A DNA stretch of 63,972 nt, counting the filler, from Rhabdomonas costata (taxonomy: Eukaryota): the NCBI GenBank assembly GCA_019059605.1. It is 41 parts of 41 records of this genome, joined end to end, with 100 filler letters (N's around TTAATTAATTAA, not from the genome) between each part and the next. Parts side by side here need not be neighbours in the genome. Positions count along the whole stretch, not along the records: positions 34,383 to 35,848 come from JAHMHO010015314.1; positions 35,949 to 37,411 come from JAHMHO010015315.1; 39 more parts are not named here. One strand, written 5' to 3'. The translations under genes were made by a program, and so were the position numbers. Below are positions 66 through 40,000 of the stretch, piece after piece. Under the pieces are notes generated by a model that did not search any database, was not told the DNA's origin, and saw only the letters and a list, made by a program, of their open reading frames with translations. Each line of letters opens with the position of its first letter. Position 1 is the stretch's first letter.

Positions 66-1461
66 GTCATTGTGGACTTCCAGCTTCCCAGGCTGTTCTC
101 CGTTGCCAGGCCTCTGCCCTCATATAAGGTAAGTGGAGATGTCGAAATGGCATGGATTTCTGGCAGTGTGGTGGCTTTACACTGTATAACGTCATATTTT
201 GCTGTACGGTGCAGACAACAGCAGAACAGAAAGAAAGAGGAGAAGAGTGTGCTAGAATGCGGAACAGAAACAACCCAATCAAACCCTTGCTGTGATTTAC
301 AGAAGGCACATTTCTGGCACTGTAATGGCGAAAACTGGTAACTGACAACAACAGTGTCCAGGGAATTGTTCAACTGAGGAGGCAAGCAAGCGGGAGAAAG
401 AGATAAGTATCTGCTGGGACACGCATGAACACGGGGGTGGGCAAAACAAAAAGGGAAAAGGAGGAAACGAGGCAGGGAACTGGGCTACGGACGAAAGGCA
501 CCCTAAGACAAAAGGTAACCAAAGTCGGGATTCGAGCAAAACCAGGAAGGAAATGTGGACTGTCCGCTGAACACAAAAGCACAAAAACGTGGGGGCACAA
601 ACAAATGGAGCAGCAGGGGACTGGGGGCCTACATAAAAGGGAGGAAGGGAAGGAAGGAAAACAAAAAGGCACTGCGCACAGTACAATGCAGAAAAGATGG
701 GAAGGGACTGGCAAAGATTCAAAAAAGGGACTGGGCAGCAGCGAAGTGGGGGGCCGAAACACCACAGGGAAGGGAAGACACAGCGGAGCTCGCGCGGAGA
801 AATATGAAGCACCGCATGAGGAGCGCGGGGAAGGCAACGAACGCAAGGACGGGAGAGGGCCAAAAGAAAAGAAAAGGGTGGTATAGCACGTAGAACACCT
901 CGAAGGCAGGAGAACACAGAATGGAAGGAGAACATTGAGGGTGGAAGAGGGGGGGTATCAGACGAGGGGGATTGGCTGGTTGTTGGAGCCGACAAGCGGC
1001 ACCATTATCTACACCGACAACGTCTACAAATGTCTAGAACACAACGCAGACCCACACGACGTCACAGCGAAACATTTGGGGTGGAGGTTAGCATATGCTG
1101 TCCTCCACCGAGCAACCAGTCGCGCCCACGACGTTATTTCTTCTTCTCGCAAGCATTGCCCTCTAACCCCCCAGCGAGACCAACAACCTCTCGTCGAGAA
1201 CAGGCGCAACGCCGACCTCTAGCACCTAGAATATAGGCCTGTTCAAGAGAAATTGTTCTTTTTACCTTTCTTATCTTTTTACCTGTGGGTGAGTGTCATT
1301 TAGGTGATATGCTTCCCTTTGGTTCCATTTGACCCCGTGTACTTCGTTTCAGGCAGTCCAACTGAGTTTGGCTTTTCCACCTAAATCGACTTGCTCGACG
1401 GACGCGCTTGTCCCAGACAGAGCATCCCAAATCATTCAAATCCCAAATCACACACACCCAC

Positions 1462-1561
1462 NNNNNNNNNNNNNNNNNNNNNNNNNNNNNNNNNNNNNNN
1501 NNNNNTTAATTAATTAANNNNNNNNNNNNNNNNNNNNNNNNNNNNNNNNNNNNNNNNNNNN
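1462..1561. other. Artificial contig-joining spacer N44-TTAATTAATTAA-N44 (first of 40 copies)
   Basis: The same 100-bp spacer, with stops in all six frames, recurs about every 1562 bp. Copies start at 1462, 3025, 4591, 6154, 7717, 9280, 10845, 12408, 13971, 15534, 17098, 18661, 20223, 21786, 23349, 24911, 26473, 28035, 29597, 31159, 32721, 34283, 35849, 37412, 38974, 40535, 42097, 43659, 45220, 46782, 48343, 49905, 51467, 53029, 54591, 56153, 57715, 59276, 60837 and 62396. Confidence 0.99.
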
Positions 1562-1567
1562 GGTGGG

Positions 1568-1710
1568 GGTTCGTGCTCGCCTTTGGATTTGCATGTCTGT
1601 GTCTCTGTTTGCCATGCACACAATGTTCGCACACGGGGGGGGGGCGCGCGAACATTGTGTGCATGGCAAACAGAGACACAGACATGCAAATCCAAAGGCG
1701 AGCACGAACC
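1568..1710. repeat. Perfect 63-bp inverted repeat (fold-back) at contig start
   Basis: 1568-1630 is the exact reverse complement of 1648-1710, with a 17-nt G-rich loop. Confidence 0.95.
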
Positions 1711-3671
1711 GCTTTGCAAACCCAAACCACAGCAGCTCCTCCAGCGAGCGGATTGTTAGCATCTGGTTCGCCGCGTACGGCCCGCAGCACAGCACCGCGC
1801 GCACCGCGCTGCCCCCGGTGTCCTCCTCCATCGCCTCCCCCGAGGAAGGGATGCGAGGAAGGCTGCAGCTCGTCGGCAGCGCGGGGAGCTACGGGCGCAA
1901 GTGGTAGTGGGGAGAGAATGACAGGACATTGTGGCGCAGGGGAAGCAACAACTAAAGGCGCCGAATCACGTCGAGGTAATACTGAGGTGCATTCCCACAA
2001 ACACACAATACGCTGCTGACAACAGCTGCGGAACCCTCTCAATGGTCCGCATATCAATACCATGTTCAGAAATAAGACCGGGAAAGAATAACGATGAGAC
2101 CCACAGTGACAAGAGCGAGAAGAAAAGAAAAGGGGGCCCTTGGCCAAACAGAGGTGTCAACACGAAAGAGGCACAGTACGCATAATACTACAGATCATTC
2201 CCCCGTGCACACACACACATCTTTTTGATTCGAGAAGATTATCGCAGCAGATTATCACGCTTTATCACAGCAGCGAATCAAAGAGAAGGATTTTGCCAAA
2301 AGTGTCGAGCGAAGACGGGCACACGCCTCAAAGAGCTGTGACACCAGCAGGATGCCCTTCCCGTCCGCGTCCGGGCTCGCTAGTTCCATCCCAAGATTCT
2401 TCCCTCGAAACGCAATAATCTGCCAAGAGAAGGACACCCCAACTCTCCCCCCACCCCCTTCACCGAAAACGCAAAGATGCGCACGCAGACGTACCACACT
2501 GCGCGCTTTTCGGTACGCAGAGTTTCCGCCCATCTCCATATCTCCATGGCGCGCACGATAGCGGGGGGGGGGGCAAGAAGCAGGGACTTTCCCGGTATGC
2601 CCTTTGGATTCTCTTGTCTCGAACTGTCATCTTTCTCTACCTCCCGCCACTCTGCTCCTTGTCCACGCAACGCTTCCCCGCCGCTCCGCCGCAGCGTCTG
2701 TAGTGCTGTGGAACACTGGTCGTTGTCGGAGTCAGCACAAAACCAACCAAAAAATGGGTCTGGTGTACGAGCGGCGGAAAGACGGAGCAAGTCATCCCGT
2801 CCTCAAACGTTCGACTTTCCGTTGGCGGAAATTCTCCATCTTCTCACCAGCTACGACCTCCATTTCTGTTGCGTTTGTACTAAGTCTCTGAGCGCTCTTT
2901 TCAGGCAAAAGCGTAAAGCTCAATTAAACGATGACACCCCACCCCCGCGAGACGCCCCACGTTCCGTGGCCCACTACCACCGAATCTGGCCACAAAGTCC
3001 AAACCCCAGTCCCACACACGGACGNNNNNNNNNNNNNNNNNNNNNNNNNNNNNNNNNNNNNNNNNNNNTTAATTAATTAANNNNNNNNNNNNNNNNNNNN
3101 NNNNNNNNNNNNNNNNNNNNNNNNGGTGTGGGGGGTTGAATGCGCCAAGGAAATCTGGGGAAATGCCTCCAGCAGAGCCAGCAGCTGCATTCTGCAGAAG
3201 AAAAACGACCGAAACAAAAGCCTCACGTTTGCAGTAGTTAATTATAACCACAAAGTTGTACAGACAAACAAGAGAGAGCCACGATTAGAGGCTCGTTTGG
3301 AGATTCAAGCACACACACACACACACACACACACACAACGGATGCGTTCAAAAGCGTGCGCAATCAATAGCAAAAACAGGAACACTTGGAGGGTTCGCAG
3401 CAACGCTCAAGTACCGACGATAAGAAAACGCAATAATTACAACAAAGGCAGAGACGGCTTGACAGCGTGTGCAACAAAAATAGGACTGCAAGGCACTCAT
3501 TGCAGAAGCAGCGGGGGGGGGGGTGCTGGCACATTAAAAGTTCGATCCTAAGGCATACCCTACGCAGCACTGAGAACACAGGCCCGCCTCTCCCCTTCCA
3601 ACATTTGTTACCCTTCTGATATCCGTGTTCGTCACCCTGTCTTCCGGGTTCATTTGTTGCCTTTGCCCCCC

Positions 3672-3766
3672 TTGGAATCACACCACATCCACGGCGCGTG
3701 TTCTCCGTGTTTTTCTTTCTAGTTTCCCTCTATGATCATTTGACCCCCACGCATTCTCCACCGAAC
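3672..3766. repeat. Dispersed ~95-bp repeat, copy 1
   Basis: TTGGAATCACACCACATCCACGGCGC...TAGTTTCCCTCTATGATCA.TTGACC closely matches 63433-63527 on a different contig. Confidence 0.85.
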
Positions 3767-5985
3767 GCTATTCCTTCGTTGCCAGTGTAAGTTATTGCAT
3801 TGCCTATGGCCCGGACCATGAACAACCTGTGCGCTGCTGCCGTGACCTCTTCTTTAAAAAAAATATTACTTAATATTTTTATTACTTTTAATATTTCCAA
3901 AAAAACTAAATTTATTGGAAAAATAAAAAACAAGAATTCTGCCGATTAGCCCTAATTCCTTGCAAACCTTTCTCGTTCTCTGAACTTTTTGATTTTACGG
4001 CAGGCTAAGCCTCATACATAAGACGACGGAATTTTCGCTGATAACCTACTGGGAAAGCAGAAACAGGCAGCAAAAGTATGACGAAAAACGTCAATTGACC
4101 CTTGTGGGACTTCCCTGATCACTCAACGGCACCATTTTTACCGTCCGAGGAGTTGCACTTTGCTTCTGATTTTCCATGTTGAGCACCTTCTTGTTTTTGT
4201 TTATCGTTGCTCTATATTGCCGTAGGGGATCTGGCCGGCTGCAGAACTCCACGAACTCCGCAAGACAGAACAAGCATCACTCTGCAGGAGAAGAACTAAG
4301 GTTAAAACCACATTGCACGGAGAGGGCGAGCGGCACAAAAGGGGAAAACTTGCTGAAGGACTCGGCCTCCGGTTTGATAAACTTGAGGTGAAAGAGCGCC
4401 TCGCAACATCTGCAAAACTAAGAGATAAAAAAAAACACAAAACATAGGCAAATTCCATACAGACACTCCCTCCAAAACGTCCAAGCCAAAAAAAAATCGG
4501 GCAAAAGCATGTGCAACTTTAAGCATTCACATTTTCTCGACATATTTTAAACACGTTCTTCGATGTATTAATAACTCTTTAACAACAAAANNNNNNNNNN
4601 NNNNNNNNNNNNNNNNNNNNNNNNNNNNNNNNNNTTAATTAATTAANNNNNNNNNNNNNNNNNNNNNNNNNNNNNNNNNNNNNNNNNNNNGGTGTTTTGT
4701 CCAAAGTCTATTGTGCCGCGCAAAGCTCGTTGAGAAGCACTTGCATTTTTTCCGTTCCGCGTGCTGAACTGCTTTTGGCAACGCTTTTGTGTTTCCAGCA
4801 CAGGAATTGCCGATTAGTCTCTTGTACTGTTGGTTTCTTGTGGATGAGGAAACTGACCTGAAAATGGATCTTGATTTCTGGTACCGGGTGAGCCCGAGAA
4901 AATGGTCATCTATAATTTTGCAGTAAAACTGCCTCAACTTCAGGGATTTCAAATGGGGCGGTGTCGTTTGTGCACTGGCCACTGGAGTTTTGGTGTTGGG
5001 ACCGGGGCAGATCTGCTGCTTGGCTAGGGAGAAAAACGACAAAAAATTTCTTTCTCAACCGAAAGTTCACCGAACCAGCGCAGTCCGATCAAGCGCCACA
5101 CCAAGACGTGGGCAGCGCTCCAAGAATGCTGCGCTGTTTCCTGGGATCCGCAATTCTTCTATCTCAAATCTTTGTTGCCTGCATTCTGTGTAATGCCTTC
5201 CTTGTCCTTTCTTGTTGGGTTGTTCGCTTTTCTCGGGTCCGCTCCCGTGTCTTTTGGTTTCCTTTTTGGCCGTGCAACGCCTCTGTCCGTTTCCCCCGAT
5301 TCCATGTCGGAAAAAATTTGGACACTTTACCATGTTTTGAGCGAAGCTCAGGTGCTTCTCTCTCTCGCTGCCTCTTGCGCAACCCACCGACGAACGTGCC
5401 AGCGGTGTGGCTTGAAACGCAATAGTTTTTGCCCCCGCCAGGCGCCCCCTTTTTTTGCCGCATCCTTCGGCCCCGGCGCCACCCGGTTGGTTCCTTCCCG
5501 CTATGCATTCTCTTGCTACCTTTGTTTGCAGGCGCCTCTCCTAGAAGGTTTCGGCCACGTCTTTGGCATTTGCCCCTTTTCACTTATATTTGGCCACGGC
5601 ATGAAAAAGTAACAACGCCCAAACTATGGTTCCGGCGTAGGTGCGGCGAAGGAAACGGTAAATTGTCCGTTTGTGCATGTCTTTCCGTTTGACCCACTTT
5701 CTGCGCTTTCATTTTTGGGCGCCTAAGCGACGCTTGTCAGCTTTTCGAGCTTCCTTCGAGACTTCAATCCTCTGGATTACGCTGGTGGACTCTCCGTGGG
5801 AAAAAGTTTTTGAACCACTATTTTTGCACGCCCTCTCGGCGTGAAAACTCTCAATTTTTGGGTCCGCGGACAGTTCCGCCACCGACAAAGGCAAAAAAAC
5901 GGGTCTCCAGGATGAAAAATCGACCGCACGGAAATCGACCCTACTTTATGTTTTCGAGATATGTTTTTGAGATAAACGCGTTTTA

Positions 5986-6145
5986 GGCCAATTTAAGCTG
6001 TTTATGTGGTGTTTTGGCCTTTTTTTGGTGTAATTTTCCCGTTATTGGCAAGATTTTAGTTATGTGCTGACGTGAGGCTGGGTTGGCATGGGGCAAATTA
6101 CACCAAAAAAAGGCCAAAACACCACATAAACAGCTTAAATTGGCC
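5986..6145. repeat. Perfect 51-bp inverted repeat at contig end
   Basis: 5986-6036 is the reverse complement of 6095-6145 and is followed directly by the C/A-rich contig tail. Confidence 0.93.
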
Positions 6146-7616: not shown

Positions 7617-7709
7617 GGGAGACGTCCCCTTAGTAGCCGAGGAGCGTCACCCAGGGAGGGCGATCAGCCCACCCGCGCTTCCGGCTCGGCTACTAAGGTG
7701 ACGTCTCCC
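7617..7709. repeat. 25-bp inverted repeat (1 mismatch) with GC-rich 43-nt loop at contig end
   Basis: GGGAGACGTCCCCTTAGTAGCCGAG (7617-7641) pairs with CTCGGCTACTAAGGTGACGTCTCCC (7685-7709). Confidence 0.9.
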
Positions 7710-13827: not shown

Positions 13828-13963
13828 TGTAAAAAATATCAAAAAAATATCATAATGTGGACCCAAATATTTTAAGCTTTTTGGCGCTCTGGGTGGGTTC
13901 GGCGGGTCAAAAAGCTTAAAATATTTGGGTCCACATTATGATATTTTTTTGATATTTTTTACA
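13828..13963. repeat. Perfect 56-bp inverted repeat at contig end
   Basis: 13828-13883 is the reverse complement of 13908-13963, with a 24-nt loop. Confidence 0.95.
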
Positions 13964-31026: not shown

Positions 31027-33345
31027 CTACATACATGCAGCCAACTCCCCACCCGCAGCCACCCGTTAAAGACCGACTCTTCCGACCCCTCCGCTACTGA
31101 CTCCACCACACTGCACACGAGAGTGGGTATGTACGCTGAAGGGTGGTAACACAAAACCNNNNNNNNNNNNNNNNNNNNNNNNNNNNNNNNNNNNNNNNNN
31201 NNTTAATTAATTAANNNNNNNNNNNNNNNNNNNNNNNNNNNNNNNNNNNNNNNNNNNNGGTTTGGTTTCCGAAGGTTGCCGGAAAGAATCTTAGATTTCA
31301 ATTTACCAATTACTCAGAGAAACCTCGCGTGTGGCTATTACTCAATTACTGTGACTTTCGGAGTCGTCGATTACCGTTCACCACCCATCGCCACTTGATG
31401 GCACAATGGCAGGTTTTGGGGCGGGGGGCAAGCCCCTGAAGTCTGAACGTATGGTATCCTGAGTTTTCACACGATTGTCCGTCTTTTATCCCTCCCTGTG
31501 CAGAAATTGTCTCTCTGGGTTCGTTTCGGTGGACCCTTGTTGCATTGCCAGGTGAGGCGGTTCTTGCGTGGTCCTTTTGCCACGACGGTGAGATCAAGCC
31601 TGACCTCGTGGAGGCTCGCGAAAGGAACCCTGCAACGAGCATCGCGCTGAAGCGGAAGCAGCGCGAGAGCCTGGAGAGCGACGCTCACCCCCAGTGCGGG
31701 GTCACTGCAATGGGGTCGAAATTCCGCGGCCACCCTCTGGTGTCTCTTCCTGGGGTCATTGACTCAAGCGAAACGTAAGCTCAAAGGTGGGTCCCTTGAG
31801 CAGGGCTCTGGGTTCCCGTGAAGTACTTATCGTGGCTCGTGTTATTTTTGAGACGCCCCTCGGCGCGTCGTTGTGATTTGTGTCGTGCGTCTTCCAATGG
31901 GCTATTTTTCCTCGGACAATAATTCTGCCCTTTACAATCATTATCAAAAGTATTTATTATCAAAACTCATCTTTCTTTCGAACTTACCTTTCGAGGTATA
32001 TTTTTGCTTGTATTTTGGAGCCTTTCGAATTTTTGGATATCGTGAGGGTTTCCAACGTTACTCAACGAAAGTTTCTTCCTTTGTCACTCGAGTCGATTCT
32101 GCATCCCCCCCCCCTCTCTCCCTCGAAATTGTGACGGTGGAAGAGACAGGTGAAGGGCCCCATCTTATTTGGATGATCTGCGCAAAGAAATGTGAGAAAC
32201 TGGACATTGCTTTTTGATTGACCGTGGCTGAATGCTGTGCATTACAGTTCTTTCAGAGGTGGGATCCTCATGAGCAGAAATTGCAGTTGCAGACGGCTGT
32301 GGAGTTTGATCTGTCGTCTTGAACCTAACCCTAACCAAACCAAAAACTGCATTGAGGGAAATTATCCGGGAATACCGTGCACAAAGCGAAATTTCTGGGC
32401 TATGAGTTTTGAGATCTATCTCGAGAGTCAGCCGCAGCTTTGAAAGTTCGGCCTTTGAACAAACCCAACACCAAATTGTAGCACTCAATGCGCACCCCAG
32501 GAAGACCGTTTTCAATTTGCCCGCCATAATCAACAAAGTTCCTTTTCCAGATCGCCTTTGCGGAACTAGATTGAATCAAACGACCCGCGAATGTTTGCGA
32601 GAGAATTAAGATCACCAACACCTTCATCAGTCTTTTCTGCGGGTTGTACTAGTGGGCTCACATCGATGGAAAGAATAAACCCACGCAAACCCCCCTAAAA
32701 AAAGCCTGTGCAACCCACACNNNNNNNNNNNNNNNNNNNNNNNNNNNNNNNNNNNNNNNNNNNNTTAATTAATTAANNNNNNNNNNNNNNNNNNNNNNNN
32801 NNNNNNNNNNNNNNNNNNNNGGTGGTGTGGATGGGGGGAGGAATGGATGGCTTGCGTCAGTCAGGCGATGAACATTTGGAAGTTTGGCATATGGTTTGGA
32901 GGACTTCACTATCCAGGATAATAATCCCGGCGTCTCCCTGGCACGTGGTGAGCTAAAGAACATTTGTGATAGTCAGCAAGGGTGGTTTTTGCCTTTTCTT
33001 CCTTTCCTCCCATGTCTTTATTCGCGCGCGCTGGTTGTCGAGTATTTTTACTACTCCCTTTCCATATAAAACTTATAAAAAAGCTGGTGCGCTTGATTTT
33101 CCATGAATATCTTTGGCCACTGATGGTGCGGGTGCCCGAACATAACAAGAACGCCACAATGTCGCGACCGCGCAATATTGCAAAACTGCAATGCCGCCCT
33201 ATCGCCATGAGGCCACAAAGCACTCTGACCTTTTGGCTGTCATGCCTTCGTTCGGAATTGTGGTAATTGGATGGTCGCCATCAGTCGGTTTCAACCCCCC
33301 GTGACCCCACCAGCACCACCTCCTCCCAACGCCTTTGCCTTGCAG

Positions 33346-34382: not shown

Positions 34383-34920
34383 GGAACTGAGCCATTAGAT
34401 CCCACTGCGGCGGATGAAAAGCCCCAAAAGATGAGCAAGGTGGATCTGGCCGAAATAGTTTTGGCCGAGGGAATCAAAACATACGAGCAGCTGCTTGTAG
34501 AAGGTGTGTTAACTTTATTTTTCTGCTTATTTGCAATTAAATGCACTTCATTAGTGAAAACACGTATGCGTTTTTATAGCTGAGAAAAGACGAAGGGCTT
34601 CTGATGAACGCCTGTGGAGCTTTATCATCATGAGGGGAAGAAAATGCGTTGAGGAGACCGTCGCGATTACTAATACAATGAACACCTCAATTGAGGACGC
34701 GGTCCTTTCCCAGCGGCCAAGACTACAGGTCTTGGCCGATGCCATGCAAAAGCCTTGCGAGTGTGCTGAAAAAGGTCTTTGGAGGTCCCTCGCAGAGATG
34801 ACGCTAAAGAATAATGAAATAGAAAGGGAGGAGTTTTGCCGGGCGGTGGTTGATTTGCTGAAGCTGGGAAGGGGAAAGAATCGCAATATTTTTCTCATTG
34901 GCAGAAGCAACTGTGGAAAA
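34383..34920 (+). CDS. Rep protein central part and SF3-type helicase start (exons 34383-34503 and 34580-34920; 76-bp GT-AG intron 34504-34579), cut at Walker A
   Basis: Spliced reading GTEPLDPT...GIKTYEQLLVE|AEKRRR...LWRSLAEMTLKNNEIEREEFCRAVVDLLKLGRGKNRNIFLIGRSNCGK. The N-hydrophobic-GxxxxGK Walker A context resembles parvoviral NS1/CRESS SF3 helicases. The phase-1 intron restores the frame. Confidence 0.75.
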
Positions 34921-35052
34921 AGTCCTGGTCACCCGGAGATGGTTGCCAGACTCAGTTCCGTCAGCCAGGAACCTTCTCACACCGGATCGCCTAGCTCTCG
35001 ATGCTTCTTCCGTCCTGGGTCTGGCAACCATCTCCGGGTGACCAGGACTTTT
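34918..35052. repeat. Perfect 34-bp inverted duplication marking a rearranged/chimeric junction in the Rep gene
   Basis: 34918-34951 is the reverse complement of 35019-35052. Both copies encode KSPGHPEMVAR, on opposite strands. Confidence 0.92.
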
Positions 35053-35385
35053 CACCACATCATGGTCACTTTTAGTGACATACGCAAGCGCATGGTAGTA
35101 GTTGGAACCTTCAGGAGGGGCCGAAAAATTAGCATAGATTCCATCAGCCCGAAGCAAAGCTGCAACCCTGGCAAATCTGTAGGAACGTCGAAGCTTCAGA
35201 GCTAAATGATAGTGAAAGCCCCCTTCTGAGTGAGATTCCTTTGCTGAGCACCAGCAAACAACGACGTTGCCAAAGCACTGAAAAAAAGCGCCTGCGACTC
35301 GTTGTGCAAAATCTTCCTTGCTGCCAACAGAAGCGGCTCTTTCGGCGTGAGAAAGTGTTACTAAGTAAACCATTTCTTGTGCCAT
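34951..35385 (-). CDS. Rolling-circle HUH endonuclease (Rep N-terminal domain)
   Basis: ATG at 35385. Motif I VYLVTLS, motif II KESHSEGGFHYHLAL (HUH) and motif III AYVTK (YxxK) occur in canonical order and spacing. Confidence 0.88.
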
Positions 35386-35586
35386 GGCCTTGATAAAGAA
35401 AAAAGTAAAGGAAAGTGGCCTTGAGAACCCATTAAACGGCACAAAAGCACACAAAACAGCATTTAAAGATCATAAAATCATTTCATTTTCATGGAATAAT
35501 GCGTTTTGCGCTGCAGGCACAGTCCACACCGAGGTTACCAATTGAAATTGTCTTTCTGATGAAGATTTTTCCAAACTTCACGCCGA

Positions 35587-35847
35587 TCTTGATGCATTTT
35601 CTGTCACCGGTCACCCAGACAACGTTTTCCAAAATACTTTGAACACAGCAAGGTTTTTACCCCCTCCCCCCCCAGGAATCAATGTTGAATTGCTTGGGAA
35701 TAAAATTCAACATTGAAAATTGGGGGGGGAGGGGGGTGTTCAATTCCATTATGGAAAACGTTGTCTGAAAATGACTTTTTCGCAACGGCGGATTCCCAAC
35801 ATCGAAAGTCACATTTAAAACGCCCGAAAAAATGCATTGCATCAAGA
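35587..35847. repeat. Nested multi-arm imperfect palindrome upstream of Rep (candidate origin or terminal hairpin)
   Basis: Paired arms: 35587-35596/35838-35847, 35616-35631/35752-35767, 35639-35646/35736-35743, 35660-35674/35721-35735 and 35679-35691/35704-35716, around a 12-nt apical loop. Confidence 0.85.
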
Positions 35848-36563
35848 GNNNNNNNNNNNNNNNNNNNNNNNNNNNNNNNNNNNNNNNNNNNNTTAATTAA
35901 TTAANNNNNNNNNNNNNNNNNNNNNNNNNNNNNNNNNNNNNNNNNNNNGAGGCGCATATCTGACTTTCACCGGAATTCAACGTCAATGTCAGATTTGGTC
36001 CGTTTCGGATTCTTGCCGAGCTCCTGTTTATATAAGGCCCCGCTGCTGCGGTTTTCGTGCTTCCCTTGGCAGACTGGCCGAAGCTGTGGGTGACCTTCAG
36101 GAAGAAGAGGAGGACCCCCGGCTGCTGCTCCAAGCGGAGGAGGTGCAGGCTAAGTGGAGGCTTCGTGGCAAGTTCGACCCGGTGCGCAGTGTGTTATCCT
36201 GTGCTGTGCGTCTACGGCGGTGGGTTAGGAGTAGGGGATTAAGTCTTTTTGGGGTAAGCGTCGCATCTGTTTGGCCTGAAGTAAATGCTCTTCTGCTGAT
36301 TCTGCTGATTGCCATCCTCCCACCCACGGAGCCTGACTCTGGTTTTCCGATCCTCTTTTCGTGTGTTTTTATATGTGAAGGACATCCTCAGTTGAACAAA
36401 CAGAAACAGAAACAGAAACAGAAGCAGTTGTGGTCTTAAAATAGATCGCTGTTTTAGCTTCGAAATTTGAAAGTTCCGAGTTTCAGAAACACATACGTCA
36501 AAAAGAAAGCGCGAGGGGGAAAAAAAGCACGGGATCGACCACGAGTGGGTGGGGGTGTCTCAG

Positions 36564-36908: not shown

Positions 36909-36975
36909 GTTGTGTATGACTGTTCACGGCTCCACCACTTGCGTTTGGCTGTGCAGCTTGTACAAAGCATAGAGC

Positions 36976-36977
<2 letters not shown>

Positions 36978-37053
<76 letters not shown>
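36978..37053. repeat. (AGAC)n tetranucleotide microsatellite
   Basis: About 19 tandem AGAC units. Confidence 0.97.
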
Positions 37054-37055
<2 letters not shown>

Positions 37056-40000
37056 TCGCTCCACATCGCAACCACATCGGTCGAGGTTTCGGGTGTTTGT
37101 TTCGTGGAACGCTACTGGGCCGGCAGGCTCAACAGGCCTCTCGCTTTTGATGTCCTCTGCGCAGGCCGTTGCCCCTGATCTCAGCTCGTCCCCCTTGTTG
37201 GCCAAACCGCAAGAGAAAACCAAGCCAATCAGCCAATTTTCATGTCTTTTCCAACCTTTCCGTACCGTCCAAAATCCCGCATCTTGCCGTACTGCTCACT
37301 TTCTTCCTCTGTGGATGTCTGTACTTGTGCCGCCGTTAATCAGCCAATAATACACCAGAAACCCAAGGAAAGGCCCATCAAGGCCAAGTTCCTAGTTCTC
37401 ATCTCCCCCCANNNNNNNNNNNNNNNNNNNNNNNNNNNNNNNNNNNNNNNNNNNNTTAATTAATTAANNNNNNNNNNNNNNNNNNNNNNNNNNNNNNNNN
37501 NNNNNNNNNNNTTTTGGGTGTATGCCTGCGTAGCTTTTGGGGAGTTGATGGGTTTTCAATAGAATACGAAAGGGGAGATATGAATTCGATGAGCATGATG
37601 TGATAGCGGCTTATTTTCAAACGTTTATCACCCTCCCAGAAACCAACCATACAACATTGCGAAGGATGCGGAGCATCCCGCCAGCACGCTGCCATCAAAA
37701 TCCCTCTTTGCGCAGGGGTCTGGTGCCAAAGCGTCGCCAAATTATACGGGCTGAGGGGAGATCACCTCGGCGGCCTGCTGGCACTTCCGCTGCAGCGCCC
37801 GCACGTGCAGGGATCGCAGCTGTGCCCGCAGCTTGAGCTCCTCCTCCACGGCGGCGGCATGGGGATCCACCACGGGCGAAGCCGCTGGCGGGGCGGAGGG
37901 CTCTGCCTTCTCCCCACTTTTTCTCTGCGAGTCACCGCGAGCGCGGGTTCCAACGCATTCCCTTCGAAAGTGTGACAGACCGGGGGACAGCTTTTGGTGG
38001 TATCAGAACTGCGAAGCGAAGGAGGTGCGAAGCTGGACTTGCGGTGAGAACAGAGAAGAGCCGCTCATTACCAAATGAAGGCCAGCGTTTCCAACATGAA
38101 AAAGCCATCGCAGAGCGCACCTCGGAATTGCGAGAAACCTCCTCACTTTCCTGCAAATCCCGTGTGATGCTGCCACCGCCGAAAACCACGAGGTGCAGCT
38201 GGCGGCGGGCAGTAGCCTCCTCGTGGATGATCGCCTGCGTGGGCAACGCAAGAACGGGAGTGCGCCGATAGCAAAATTCAGCAAACATAACCACACATCT
38301 CCGCACAAGGGACTCCAACAACCATATTATTAGAAGTTAACGTAAAAGGCGACGGTCTTCCCTCTGCCTAAATCCTGCAAGTCGAGCGGACAGGACCCCA
38401 GATAGCCACACCTCAACTTGACGCCGTGGAAAGCTGTTGAATGGTATCCGCAACCCCCAAGTCCCGTCAAGCGTACGCATACGCACACCCGCAATTCTTT
38501 AAAAAAAAATACAGTTTAAAAAATACAGTTCGTGCGGCTTAAGGGCTTGACGAAACATACACCCTCTTCCCGCAACTCGCACTTACACTTACTTACCTCA
38601 TACTTACAGAAAAGGTGCAGTGCTCTGCCAGAAACACGACAAATGCACACACACACACACACACACAAACCCACACATACCACGTGCACCACGCATTCCT
38701 TTGGTGGAGGTCTTTCTGCCTCCAGGCTTTTCTACACACTCCCGCTGCCTGGCTGCTTCTGGTAAGGTACGGATCACAATTCGCTGCTCGGCTGAGGTTC
38801 TTCGGAAACCTCAATGGCGCATTCAAACGCGGTGCTAGGAACTGCGGCAAGTGCTCTCCCACACTTCGTGCCTAAGGCGTGGTATTGGTGGAGTTCCTTT
38901 CGGTCTCCAGCGGGCTTTCGAATTCGCACCTGCTGCCTGACCCTGACAGCTTCCTGGAGAACGGATCACCCCTNNNNNNNNNNNNNNNNNNNNNNNNNNN
39001 NNNNNNNNNNNNNNNNNTTAATTAATTAANNNNNNNNNNNNNNNNNNNNNNNNNNNNNNNNNNNNNNNNNNNNGTTGGTTGGTCGACCTCGGGGTGAGGG
39101 GGGAGCGTGGGGTGGAGCCCCCGGCCTTGCTTCGAAGAACCCCGCGGAGCTCTCCCCATGACGCAACCAGGCGGTCGATGTCCGGGGCAAAGGTGAACCG
39201 GGGCGCCTGTGTTTGTGATGAAAACCACACCGCAAATCATGGGAAGGTGGTGGACAGGTGAAAAAGGGAGGTTACTACCCTACCCTGCCCTACACTACAC
39301 TGGGTGCTCTGGTACGGCTGAAATCTTCGAGGGGTCGTGCACGTTTCATTTTGGAACGGCCGCTCATTCTGTTACTGGACTGGAAGGTCCGAGACAGTCA
39401 AATGAGTTAGGTGCCATGCGTTGCATCGCATCGAAGTGCCTATAGCACAATGAAGGGAAGTCTCACTTGTCAGCAAAGAAGGTCCAAAGCAGCCACCAAA
39501 AGACCAGCCAACGCACCCCTCCTGTGAATGTATAAAAGGATGACATTGAAAAATGAAGAATCCCGATCGGTTTGCGCAGTTGTGCAAACGCAAACACCCC
39601 AAGTACAAGGAAGGTGTGCGCCACCCCGAAACGAAATGGTAATTTAACAGATTTTCAACAAAAAGAGATTTAGCGATGAAATCAGCAAAATCACATTCCG
39701 CCTACACACTTTCCCTCTCCCGGAAATCCCAAAAATGAAACAAGGGAGGAAAATAAGCTGTGGAGTAGCATTACCCTCTTCTGCATCTCCAGAAGATCAT
39801 TTTGCGCTCGAGCGAGGTTCCGCTGAGCTCGTGACGGAGCATCTGAGCCTGGGATAGAAAAAGAGAGCAAACTGGTGGCTACCCGATCAAGTAAAGCACC
39901 TACTGGTGGCTACCCAACCACGAAAGGCACATTAACACAAAAAGAAGTTGTGGCCTTGCGTACCTTCTCCGGAGGGCTCCTTGCCTGCCTCAGCGGCTGC

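Follow-up and report, generated by a model that had tools for sequence, protein, structure and literature searches.

A virus-type Rep gene interrupted by a fold-back in a Rhabdomonas costata contig, probably from a small eukaryotic mobile element

Contig JAHMHO010015314.1 of the Rhabdomonas costata assembly GCA_019059605.1 is probably a copy, rearranged and truncated, of a small mobile element of eukaryotes that may also be episomal. The hallmark gene of this element is a viral-type replication initiator (Rep). Under the best reading of the data, it is a broken Rep-encoding mobile element and not a capsid virus, and its annotation should name a broken mobile-element Rep, not a gene of the host or the genome of a virus. 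The contig corresponds to positions 34383-35848 of the window, i.e., the whole stretch of DNA that was analysed, which is composed of 41 contigs of ~1.46 kb each with N/TTAATTAATTAA spacers between them, 64 kb in all. As read from its sequence, the contig covers the beginning of a gene for DNA replication that resembles those of viruses. The coordinates of its features are collected in Table 1.

Table 1. Features of the contig, in window coordinates.
Feature	Position	Strand	Description
Rep exon 1, after GTE	34383..34503	plus	linker PLDPTAADEKPQKMSKVDLAEIVLAEGIKTYEQLLVE and first base of a split Ala codon
Intron	34504..34579	plus	76 nt, GT at 34504 to AG at 34579, phase 1
Rep exon 2	34580..34923	plus	helical middle domain, as far as the Walker A loop of SF3 (GRGKNRNIFLIGRSNCGKS); 3' end RNIFLIGRSNCGKS
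Inverted repeat, left arm	34918..34955	plus	K-SPGHPEMVAR coding stretch, duplicated in sense orientation
HUH endonuclease domain of Rep	34951..35385	minus	Met at 35385 to ...RFLADGTE; 145 aa
Inverted repeat, right arm	35015..35052	minus	native K-SPGHPEMVAR-P coding stretch within the Rep ORF
Between palindromic module and Rep start	35386..35615	minus	putative 5' UTR or promoter of Rep, presumed from position
Palindromic module	35616..35767		outer arms 35616-35635 (CAGACAACGTTTTCC...) and 35748-35767 (...GGAAAACGTTGTCTG)
Conserved hairpin within module	35653-35743		C-run, CAATGTTG, loop, CAACATTG, G-run
Stretch past module	35768..35848		81 nt to contig end; in relatives, the transposase starts on this side

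The HUH endonuclease domain is intact; it is encoded on the minus strand and contains motifs I (VYLVTLS), II (HYH, within GGFHYHLALKL) and III (YVTK), being 79% identical to the metagenomic protein P0001. A sequence-only reading of this DNA had described such a domain, with YLVT, HYH and YVTK and a GTE ending, and all of these are located where that reading placed them. The same is true of the 9-nt repeat encoding GTE, GGAACTGAG, which is present in the same frame at the start of the contig (34383) and, as its reverse complement, at 34951. From there, the exon 1 piece matches residues 143-191 of P0001 (74%) and is followed by the GT-AG intron, of spliceosomal type, that had also been proposed. 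Frame 0 of this intron terminates in a stop codon, while its removal generates LLVE-AEKRRR, which aligns with the proteins P0004 and P0003; these two, as well as P0023, are intronless at this position. The intron site is shared with P0001 and P0002, whose reading runs into the intron after LLVEG/LLLEG. Exon 2 is 51% identical to residues 192-306 of P0004 (E 1e-32), and family homology ends at 34923. From the Met to the Walker A lysine, the joined pieces amount to 145+37+1+113 = 296 codons. Walker A (GRSNCGKS) is the only SF3 motif in the window: the contig breaks there, so it lacks Walker B, motif C and the arginine finger.

Joining the two halves of the gene yields GTE/PLDP, which at nucleotide level runs from ...GGAACTGAG to CCATTAGAT... 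P0001 reads without interruption across this point (...RFLADGTE-ALDP...), and so does P0002 (...RFIADGTE-PLDD...). Since both proteins are continuous across GTE-(A/P)LDP, the join is real biology. The frame of ~296 aa proposed in the sequence-only reading is, hence, right for the gene, but the contig as assembled does not encode it, because its two gene halves are mutually inverted. Actually, the assembled contig is a fold-back: an inverted repeat of 38 nt (97% complementary, arms 59 nt apart) breaks the Rep gene, with rearrangement junctions at about 34918-34925 and 34951-34955. In consequence, with the helicase motifs past Walker A missing and the halves inverted, the window copy as assembled is unable to make a full Rep. 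Neither this inverted repeat (34918-34955 / 35015-35052) nor the nested palindrome upstream of Rep (35616-35767) figured in the sequence-only reading.

A protein database search with the HUH piece of the window returned 474 relatives at E<=1e-3, 133 of them at E<=1e-10, and these alignments place the window protein in a large HUH-SF3 family (the 474 database proteins) without Pfam coverage. Full-length members share (i) an N-terminal HUH domain with one Tyr; (ii) a helical middle domain; and (iii) a C-terminal SF3 helicase with its full set of motifs (Walker A, Walker B, motif C, arginine finger). The family alignments display HYH, YVTK, GPANCGKTF, FLNDFRW, PIFATS and MMxxRW, and the HUH motif columns show little or no variation across 41 family members. 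When compared with PDB, the family profile matches the AAV Rep40/68 helicase (E 1.2e-4) and the PCV2 Rep helicase (1.7e-3) and, for the HUH part, vientovirus Rep (1.5e-3) and SIRV1 ORF119 (6.5e-3). The AlphaFold model of P0004, a protein 44-51% identical to the window pieces, has a pLDDT of 89.5, and its best match in a PDB fold search is full-length AAV2 Rep68 (E 1.2e-12), with E1, large T antigen, vientovirus Rep and B19 NS1 also retrieved; among viral matches, parvoviral NS1 comes first, followed by E1 and CRESS Rep. The predicted fold of both domains, therefore, resembles that of solved viral initiators. The HUH plus SF3 architecture proposed earlier is thereby upheld by the family alignment, the PDB profile search and the fold search.

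Pfam models recover this family poorly. The window pieces give only sub-threshold values (REP_ORF2-G2P, E 0.077; PPV_E1_C, E 0.11) and no match in a PHROGs search. At E<=0.01, the 41 family members match REP_ORF2-G2P (23), PPV_E1_C (14), Parvo_NS1 (10) and Gemini_AL1 (4), and none of them matches Viral_Rep, or any Helitron or PIF1 model. Curated cut-offs are reached by none of the 11 Rep relatives for which bit scores are shown. The HUH and SF3 profile matches anticipated by the earlier reading are, then, obtained with the family profile (AAV, PCV2, vientovirus) but not at Pfam cut-offs. As a lead, the nearest ESM Atlas clusters are eukaryotic, Cnidaria, Perkinsozoa and Mollusca being the most frequent among few taxon records; this agrees with the marine-invertebrate relatives which that reading had mentioned.

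The HUH columns yield a tree in which the window is placed within a clade of 10 rows (SH-aLRT 100), hereafter clade W. This clade includes P0001, P0004, P0023, P0280 and P0282 and is sister to a 74-row clade containing all transposase-linked loci. The neighbourhoods of the gene were studied in 80 loci, the best 80 of 185 relatives from a metagenome scan with the A3 alignment; all of them belong to the sister clade, and their top identity to clade-W proteins is 37%. Other scans gave 0 relatives: (i) IMG/VR viral contigs with P0001, P0004, A3, P0154 and P0280; (ii) metagenomes with P0001; and (iii) prokaryote genomes with P0004 and P0282. When the sizes of clade-W Rep-bearing contigs were compared with those of transposase-bearing contigs, none matched among the 120 listed of 1032.

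In the sister clade, Rep is accompanied by a Tc1/mariner-type DDE transposase gene. Among the best 80 of 185 loci, this gene is present in 42, on the strand opposite to Rep every time, and in 26 of the 28 that have at least 1500 nt downstream of Rep; the two genes lie tail to tail, in units of 3.7-4.5 kb. The second gene exceeds the Pfam cut-offs for HTH_Tnp_Tc3_2 and DDE_3, with the exception of HTH_Tnp_Tc3_2 in locus L019 (30.9 vs 31.5 bits). There are 34 residues from its second D to its E, the spacing that gives the DD34E class its name, so that the transposase looks DD34E-like. Rep and transposase are the only conserved ORF families in those 80 loci (best 80 of 185), the remaining ORF clusters being antisense shadows that overlap Rep or the transposase; neither a third conserved gene nor a capsid gene was found among them. 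Rep and transposase distances are correlated overall (r 0.94, 0/2000 permutations) and, after dropping near-identical loci, the co-divergence of the 11 loci left is not significant (r 0.25, 116/2000). The 64-kb window contains no transposase match, and the Rep contig stops 81 nt beyond the module, too early for a transposase gene to show and too short to reveal a capsid gene. Judging from the tree, the transposase link holds for the sister clade, and the window's own clade is separate from it.

Sister-clade units have a single kind of module, formed by an inverted repeat, a hairpin and a second inverted repeat. In integrated copies, this module is found at both ends as a direct repeat, with TA on the outside, and no flipped orientation of the end modules was seen in them. 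For instance, L005 (positions 1033-4996) reads TA/CAATGGG...CCCATTG/TA, with a 265-nt direct repeat at each end; L004 has a right end identical to that of L005 and a different flank; and L037, from a second lineage, has a module at each end and TA flanks. The terminal inverted repeats start with CAAT or CAGT. Among 28 inverted-repeat arms, 10 are TA-flanked and 18 GA-flanked. Terminal inverted repeats with TA flanks are present in L005, L004, L015, L018, L039, L042, L078, L079 and L037. The flanks of integrated copies hold eukaryotic transposon genes, including RVT_1 (117 bits) and DDE_Tnp_4. Other contigs of the sister clade suggest a circular or tandem arrangement: terminal overlaps of 99-123 nt occur in 6 of the 80 (best 80 of 185), and several contigs have transposase, module and Rep, in this order, in one stretch. 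The same appearance can result from the assembly itself, if two terminal repeats, or the units of a tandem array, are collapsed into one.

The window has a module of its own upstream of Rep, and the hairpin within it lies ~270 nt upstream of the Rep start codon. A model of the hairpin (R1), built from 22 relatives with the window excluded, finds it with 47.8 bits (E about 4e-8), the runner-up in the window scoring 19.3 bits. The same hairpin is detected in 40 of the 80 loci (best 80 of 185), including 18 of the 58 outside the model-building set. Pairing is maintained in 94.3% of cells, vs 51-62% when the partners are slid, and 6 pairs show double changes, a number reached in 1 of 500 shuffles. 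The stems are conserved, while the loops vary both in sequence and in length (core CAATGTTG to CAACATTG, 34-87 nt), and the family hairpins contain no conserved loop nonanucleotide. No nicking site can be defined, because the loops are unconserved. The hairpin could alternatively be a symmetric two-way promoter. The outer arms of the window module are inverted copies of each other over 20 nt, and their context is of the 'inner' kind (GA/CAAC...GTTG/TC); the model of the inverted-repeat arms (R2) gives no match at them (E<=10), and a short IUPAC arm pattern has 19 matches in the window vs 13.8 expected, which is not above chance.

Based on these observations, the following cycle can be proposed: (i) Rep would nick at the hairpin, the candidate origin; (ii) an integrated copy would be replicated from module to module, releasing a unit-length circle (copy-out); (iii) rolling-circle replication would amplify this circle; and (iv) the transposase would cut 'unit plus one module' from multimers at the outward-facing inverted repeats and move it into a TA site. 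Tentatively, and with more doubt than confidence, these elements may represent a distinct class of eukaryotic self-replicating transposon, i.e., a plasmid-transposon hybrid in which Rep carries out copy-out between origin-bearing modules and the transposase pastes the product into TA. Such a class would be old, with at least two deep clades, and spread across cnidarians, molluscs and protists, the window being from an unsampled clade.

Faced with the alternatives of a viral Rep or a poorly described HUH-SF3 mobile element, between which the sequence-only reading had not chosen, the data favour the mobile element and give no sign of a capsid-encoding virus. It is unlikely that the contig belongs to a co-sequenced small DNA virus or plasmid of CRESS-like or parvo-like type, either exogenous or episomal, whose capsid or other genes lie off this contig. 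The Rep fold is nearest to viral initiators; the ESM Atlas clusters nearest to the HUH domain are, as a lead, CRESS-virus Rep domains (scores up to 0.96); clade-W proteins are located on contigs of 2.5-4.9 kb (3578 nt for P0001, 4904 for P0004, 4408 for P0023, 4000 for P0280 and 4091 for P0282); and the position of the hairpin, upstream of Rep, is that seen in CRESS viruses, some of which also have an intron within Rep. All this would suit a virus, but no capsid-like ORF is conserved in the 80 related loci (best 80 of 185), the IMG/VR viral contigs yielded 0 relatives with the five query proteins or alignments, the Viral_Rep model matches 0 of the 41 family members at E<=0.01, the loop lacks a conserved nonanucleotide, and in the sister clade there are copies inserted into eukaryotic DNA between TA flanks.

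The fold-back raises a different question, namely whether the contig is a dead piece of an endogenous virus or the remnant of a transposon that has decayed, in which case the inversion would be a true genomic rearrangement of an inactive copy. This is improbable, even if the gene stops at Walker A, where it runs into an inverted duplication (33-38 nt) of its linker, the junctions share short stretches (AAAAGT; CTG.G) compatible with template switching, and a related metagenome contig, L055, likewise terminates in an inverted piece of Rep. Against it, the 296 codons before the break are all open and 60-79% identical to P0001, so the rearrangement, if real, would be recent; besides, 4 of the 40 other window contigs carry inverted repeats of at least 24 nt near a contig end, which points to fold-back assembly artefacts. 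It is very unlikely, finally, that the element is real but comes from the DNA of another eukaryote (an animal host or prey), and not from the dominant organism of the assembly. The high fragmentation of the assembly (41 contigs of ~1.46 kb in the window), the metagenomic origin of the relatives and the presence of Cnidaria and Mollusca, besides Perkinsozoa, in the ESM Atlas lead would agree with such a source, but the G+C of the contig (0.46) is inside the range of the window contigs (0.45-0.56) and one ESM Atlas cluster is mainly from Perkinsozoa, a group of protists. In any case, a broken Rep-encoding mobile element is the reading that is retained here.

The classification of eukaryotic DNA transposons usually relies on one enzyme: DDE transposase, HUH endonuclease, tyrosine recombinase or self-made polymerase. 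If true, the conserved association of a virus-type Rep with a cut-and-paste transposase would be a bridge between small single-stranded DNA replicons and classical transposons, a role that an origin-like hairpin within the transposon ends would strengthen. It would also offer a concrete, testable way for a cut-and-paste element to raise its copy number, and an entry route of Rep genes into eukaryotic genomes. The pairing could account for many 'endogenous viral Rep' matches in invertebrate and protist assemblies, and those relatives of the window with both Rep and transposase would be small mobile elements of marine eukaryotes. No description of a HUH-SF3 Rep and a Tc1/mariner transposase in one eukaryotic element was found in the open full-text articles that the search covered.

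Among known systems, Rep68/NS1 of the Parvoviridae and CRESS Rep have the same order as the family Rep, with a one-Tyr HUH domain, an oligomerisation-like helical region and SF3, and they share with it a palindromic element upstream of the Rep gene. They differ from the related units, which have no capsid gene (80 loci, best of 185), an adjoining DDE transposase and TA-flanked integration. With respect to CRESS viruses, the hairpin described here is without their conserved loop nonanucleotide; with respect to the Parvoviridae, whose linear genomes have hairpins at their termini and encode NS1 and a VP capsid protein, the end modules of the sister clade are direct repeats, in units without a capsid gene, and Parvo_NS1 is below its cut-off where bit scores are shown. 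The sister clade resembles Tc1/mariner elements in its HTH_Tnp_Tc3_2 and DDE_3 domains, the 34-residue D-E spacing, the CAAT/CAGT ends and the TA flanks. Unlike them, it encodes a replication initiator in an additional and larger gene, and each of its ends consists of two inverted repeats around a hairpin, with end modules that are direct, not inverted.

In the geminivirus-like transposon of the fungus Tuber melanosporum, a Rep-like ORF is combined with transposase ORFs and terminal inverted repeats; the passages of Liu et al. (2011; PMC3198968) that deal with this eukaryotic repeat regard it as evidence for an origin of transposons from single-stranded DNA viruses. Its inverted repeats are described there as 37 bp long, and its target duplication as not obvious. 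By this description, which is the basis of the comparison, it differs from the present elements in that it is a consensus of decayed copies from one fungus and its Rep is geminivirus-like (PMC3198968). The same source mentions DENSOV_HM of Hydra (Repbase), which could be related.

According to the account of both groups in Craig (2023; PMC10288648), Helitrons combine two catalytic Tyr with an SF1B helicase, Replitrons have a single Tyr without a helicase, and neither group has a DDE transposase or generates target-site duplications. Like the elements studied here, they are eukaryotic and mobile, and they have a HUH Rep and hairpins or palindromes near their ends (PMC10288648). The earlier exclusion of Helitrons agrees with the one Tyr and the SF3, rather than Pif1, helicase of the window's family, as well as with its lack of Helitron and PIF1 matches; Replitrons are excluded, as had been argued, because Rep carries a helicase domain. 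The term 'rolling-circle transposon', used in that same reading, does not hold in the Helitron sense, since the integrated copies of the sister clade bear TA-flanked inverted repeats. The family of the window thus differs from both groups in combining one Tyr with SF3, to which the sister clade adds a DDE transposase and TA flanks.

The contig at 34383-35848 appears, with moderate confidence, to be a broken copy from a family of HUH-SF3 mobile elements that encode a Rep. The window (1-63972) is composed of 41 contigs of 1459-1477 bp, apparently ordered by size and separated by N/TTAATTAATTAA spacers; in consequence, the sequence adjoining this contig is uninformative on its genomic context. 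Its G+C content is 0.46, that of the remaining contigs 0.45-0.56. All the coordinates and motifs that the sequence-only reading had assigned to the Rep pieces, including a count of 296 codons, were found to be correct when the sequence was re-read. Past the end of the HUH-domain ORF (34951), the minus-strand frame continues into sequence without relation to the Rep family.

Coordinates of features in the window and in related metagenome loci (L handles)
Feature	Position	Strand	Description
HUH-domain ORF	Met 35385 to 34951	minus	reads MAQEMVYLVTLS...GGFHYHLALKL...YHALAYVTKSD...RFLADGTE
Exon 1	34383-34503	plus	contig start GGAACTGAG (GTE), then PLDPTAADEKPQKMSKVDLAEIVLAEGIKTYEQLLVE
Intron	34504-34579	plus	GT...AG, 76 nt, frame shift of one
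Exon 2	34580-34923	plus	AEKRRRASDE...GRGKNRNIFLIGRSNCGKS
38-nt inverted repeat	34918-34955 / 35015-35052		97%; copies K-SPGHPEMVAR coding stretch
20-nt inverted pair	35616-35635 / 35748-35767		encloses hairpin; begins CAGA/CAAC
Hairpin	35653-35743		47.8 bits, E ~4e-8
Best arm-model match	31933-31953		TACAATCATTATCAAAAGTAT, another contig; 8.1 bits, E 0.42, not significant
Telomere-like stretch	32322-32336		short, CCCTAA-type, two units
Microsatellite	~36950-37080		long, (GTCT)n-type; translation SVCLSVCL...
Palindromes/inverted repeats	1568-1710, 13828-13963, 5986-6145, 7617-7709		25-143 nt, few bases from ends of four other contigs
L005 element	1033-4996		start TA/CAATGGGCGACAAAAGT, end ACTTTTGTCGCCCATTG/TA
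L002 ORF	245-1576	plus	444 aa
L008 antisense ORF	902-1723	minus	opposite Rep
Second palindromic zone	L030 1847-2100, L026 2884-3087, L019 2063-2192, L041 2820-3073		between Rep and transposase 3' ends

The same reading had joined the two halves of the gene across GTE, and the join is real. P0001, which is 276 aa long and stems from public metagenome data, was retrieved with exon 2 as query in a word-indexed search of proteins. It shares 79% identity with the window HUH domain, past which it reads ...RFLADGTEALDPIAVEEKPLKMSKVDLAEIVLSEGIKTYDQLLLEG, 26 codons of in-frame intron and then AEKRRRVSDAQ...; a second database protein, P0002, continues as P0001 does and ends within the intron at the identical site. 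Three other related proteins (P0004, P0023 and P0003) are intronless at that site and read ...MVEAERLRR.... From this read-through and these intronless forms, the natural order must be HUH, GTE, linker, intron, middle domain and Walker A. The joined frame thus stands as the natural gene order, but not as the layout of the contig, in which the assembled halves face each other as a fold-back.

The 38-nt inverted repeat lies exactly where family homology ends, after NCGKS, and both fold-back junctions, as read from the window sequence, have a few bases in common with native sequence. The fold-back may be an amplification or assembly chimera, or a real rearranged copy. Inverted repeats of at least 24 nt were found near a contig end in 4 of the 40 other window contigs, a hint at frequent fold-back chimeras in the R. 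costata assembly. Among the related metagenome loci, the contig of L055 is permuted, holds more than one unit and terminates in an inverted Rep piece (noted at 4509-4794), and L008 has inverted termini of 123 nt; fold-backs in or near Rep hence recur across independent assemblies.

Searched exhaustively with HMMER, the 145-aa HUH piece matched 474 proteins at E<=1e-3, of which 133 remained at E<=1e-10; many of the matches are 430-540 aa long. Full-length members align end to end and have in common: (i) the motifs VYLxTYS, HYH, YVTK and HPxxxxPRT, followed by a helical middle part; (ii) the helicase motifs GRGKxRN-GPANCGKTF (Walker A), FLNDFRW (Walker B) and PIFATS (motif C); and (iii) the motifs MMxxRW and PCxRCF. 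Pfam does not cover this family: matches among 41 members at E<=0.01 (REP_ORF2-G2P 23, PPV_E1_C 14, Parvo_NS1 10, Gemini_AL1 4, RNA_helicase 3) have bit scores that, where given, all fall below the curated cut-off, and the Helitron and Viral_Rep models matched none of the 41. The family profile matches the helicases of AAV Rep40/68 (E 1.2e-4) and PCV2 Rep (1.7e-3), the nuclease domain of vientovirus Rep (1.5e-3) and SIRV1 ORF119 (6.5e-3). For the AlphaFold model of P0004 (pLDDT 89.5), the best structural match is full-length AAV2 Rep68 (E 1.2e-12), followed by Rep40, papillomavirus E1, SV40 large T antigen, vientovirus Rep and B19 NS1; against viral models, the top match is parvoviral NS1, narrowly ahead of E1 and CRESS Rep. 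Motifs, profile matches and fold bear out the HUH + SF3 architecture proposed earlier, and this assignment is sound; the data do not place the protein as parvo-like or CRESS-like. Thirty-two loci, L008 among them, carry 35 clustering ORFs of at most 273 aa on the strand opposite Rep, probably a shadow of conservation in Rep itself.

A metagenome scan with the family alignment gave 185 relatives, the best 80 of which were kept as loci; five scans of IMG/VR yielded no relative. The sole conserved second gene at these loci encodes a ~360-aa protein and lies tail to tail with Rep, on the other strand. The protein matches DDE_3 with 44-55 bits (cut-off 28.6) and, in L030, HTH_Tnp_Tc3_2 with 45.9 bits (cut-off 31.5), and so looks like a Tc1/mariner-type transposase; 34 residues lie between its second D and the E, a spacing like that of class DD34E. 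It is present at 42 of the 80 loci and at 26 of the 28 whose sequence extends 1500 nt or more downstream from Rep (all but L049 and L060). Its clade is large, with 1032 proteins at E<=1e-20, encoded on contigs of up to 2.4 Mb among the matches listed. The sequence-only reading had left a virus and a mobile element side by side, and this interpretation is borne out in part. The HUH-SF3 mobile element stands, while a capsid virus finds no evidence, as no capsid gene occurs among the conserved ORF families of the 80 loci. At L002 only, an ORF ~1.2 kb upstream of Rep contains two cytidine/deoxycytidylate deaminase-like stretches (dCMP_cyt_deam_1, 73 bits) and may either belong to the host or represent cargo. 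The second palindromic zone of four loci is made of short tandem repeats, e.g., CACAAGTTAC units, and in L026 forms a 204-nt near-perfect palindrome; none was seen between the gene 3' ends of L005.

These relatives are TA-inserting DDE elements carrying a Rep. A 265-nt segment recurs at either end of the L005 element as a direct repeat of 100% identity; an 18-nt inverted repeat bounds each copy, and the hairpin at its centre is composed of a C-run, CAATGTTG, a loop, CAACATTG and a G-run. This right end recurs in L004, where TA and a different flank follow it, and L037 represents a second lineage ordered module, Rep, transposase, module, with ends TA/CAGTC...CCCTG/TA. Out of 28 inverted-repeat arms, 10 (outward-facing or solo) are preceded by TA and 18 (inward-facing) by GA, usually in TCAGA. 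Integrated copies are flanked by LINE-type reverse transcriptase (RVT_1, 117 bits) and Harbinger-type DDE_Tnp_4, and their hosts are therefore eukaryotes.

The hairpin connects the window with these loci. A covariance model built from 22 loci, with the window left out, has its sole match in the 64-kb window upstream of Rep, the next best scoring 19.3 bits, and finds the hairpin in 40 of 80 loci, including 18 of the 58 outside model building. The 8-bp stem is invariant and the C/G stem 88.6% paired; overall, 94.3% of cells pair, versus 51-62% with partners slid, and double changes affect six pairs, a count reached in 1 of 500 shuffles. The CAGA/CAAC start of the enclosing inverted pair resembles the relatives' inward-facing arms. 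Two tests of the transposon reading failed for the window: a sequence model of the relatives' arms did not match the window arms, and the short arm pattern is not above chance in the window. Near the best arm-model match, neither an inverted partner nor a hairpin is visible. The telomere-like stretch and the microsatellite lie on consecutive contigs. In the HUH-column tree, the window groups with P0001 and P0002 (SH-aLRT 98), nested in a 10-row clade (SH-aLRT 100) whose proteins are encoded on 2.5-4.9 kb contigs. Its sister, a 74-row clade, contains every transposase-linked locus; the link to a transposase is consequently observed there and presumed for the window. The palindromic element upstream of Rep is conserved in both clades.

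Geminivirus Rep can free circles of unit length from a partial tandem repeat. By analogy, the Rep studied here would nick at the hairpin, copy from module to module and close a unit circle, and rolling-circle replication would also yield multimers. If the transposase cut each inverted repeat at its outer end, a multimer could release nothing but 'unit plus one module', and this product is the integrated form observed in L005 and L037. Terminal overlaps of 99-123 nt in 6 of 80 contigs (units of 3722-4534 bp), together with several further contigs in which transposase, module and Rep are contiguous, represent circles, tandem copies or cases in which the assembler merged both end modules into one. 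The full copy-out/paste-in cycle is a tentative and rather doubtful proposal; alternatively, the hairpin might be a symmetric two-way promoter for two diverging genes, or Rep might act in some other step.

In PMC10288648, Helitrons are defined by two Tyr and an SF1B helicase, and Replitrons by having no helicase. Both are ruled out for the Rep family, given the empty Helitron search and the SF3 motifs of its members, in agreement with the earlier claim that neither class fits. The predicted Rep works like Rep68, NS1 and CRESS Rep, yet falls below curated family cut-offs; the elements have neither a capsid gene nor a loop nonanucleotide. No description of an HUH-SF3 Rep paired with a Tc1/mariner transposase was found in the full-text literature (supplements, Repbase and subscription journals excluded), and the text consulted in PMC6668415 mentions integrated bacterial Rep plasmids but not a eukaryotic Rep-plus-Tc1 element; the pairing is provisionally regarded as undescribed. 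The window copy, itself no more than a broken fragment, directs attention to a family that is widespread and apparently unnamed and whose gene pairing is unusual. Going by its description in PMC3198968, the nearest published system found is a geminivirus-like transposon from Tuber melanosporum, which combines transposase ORFs with a Rep-like ORF and has inverted repeats of 37 bp; DENSOV_HM of Hydra, named in the same paper, could be related.
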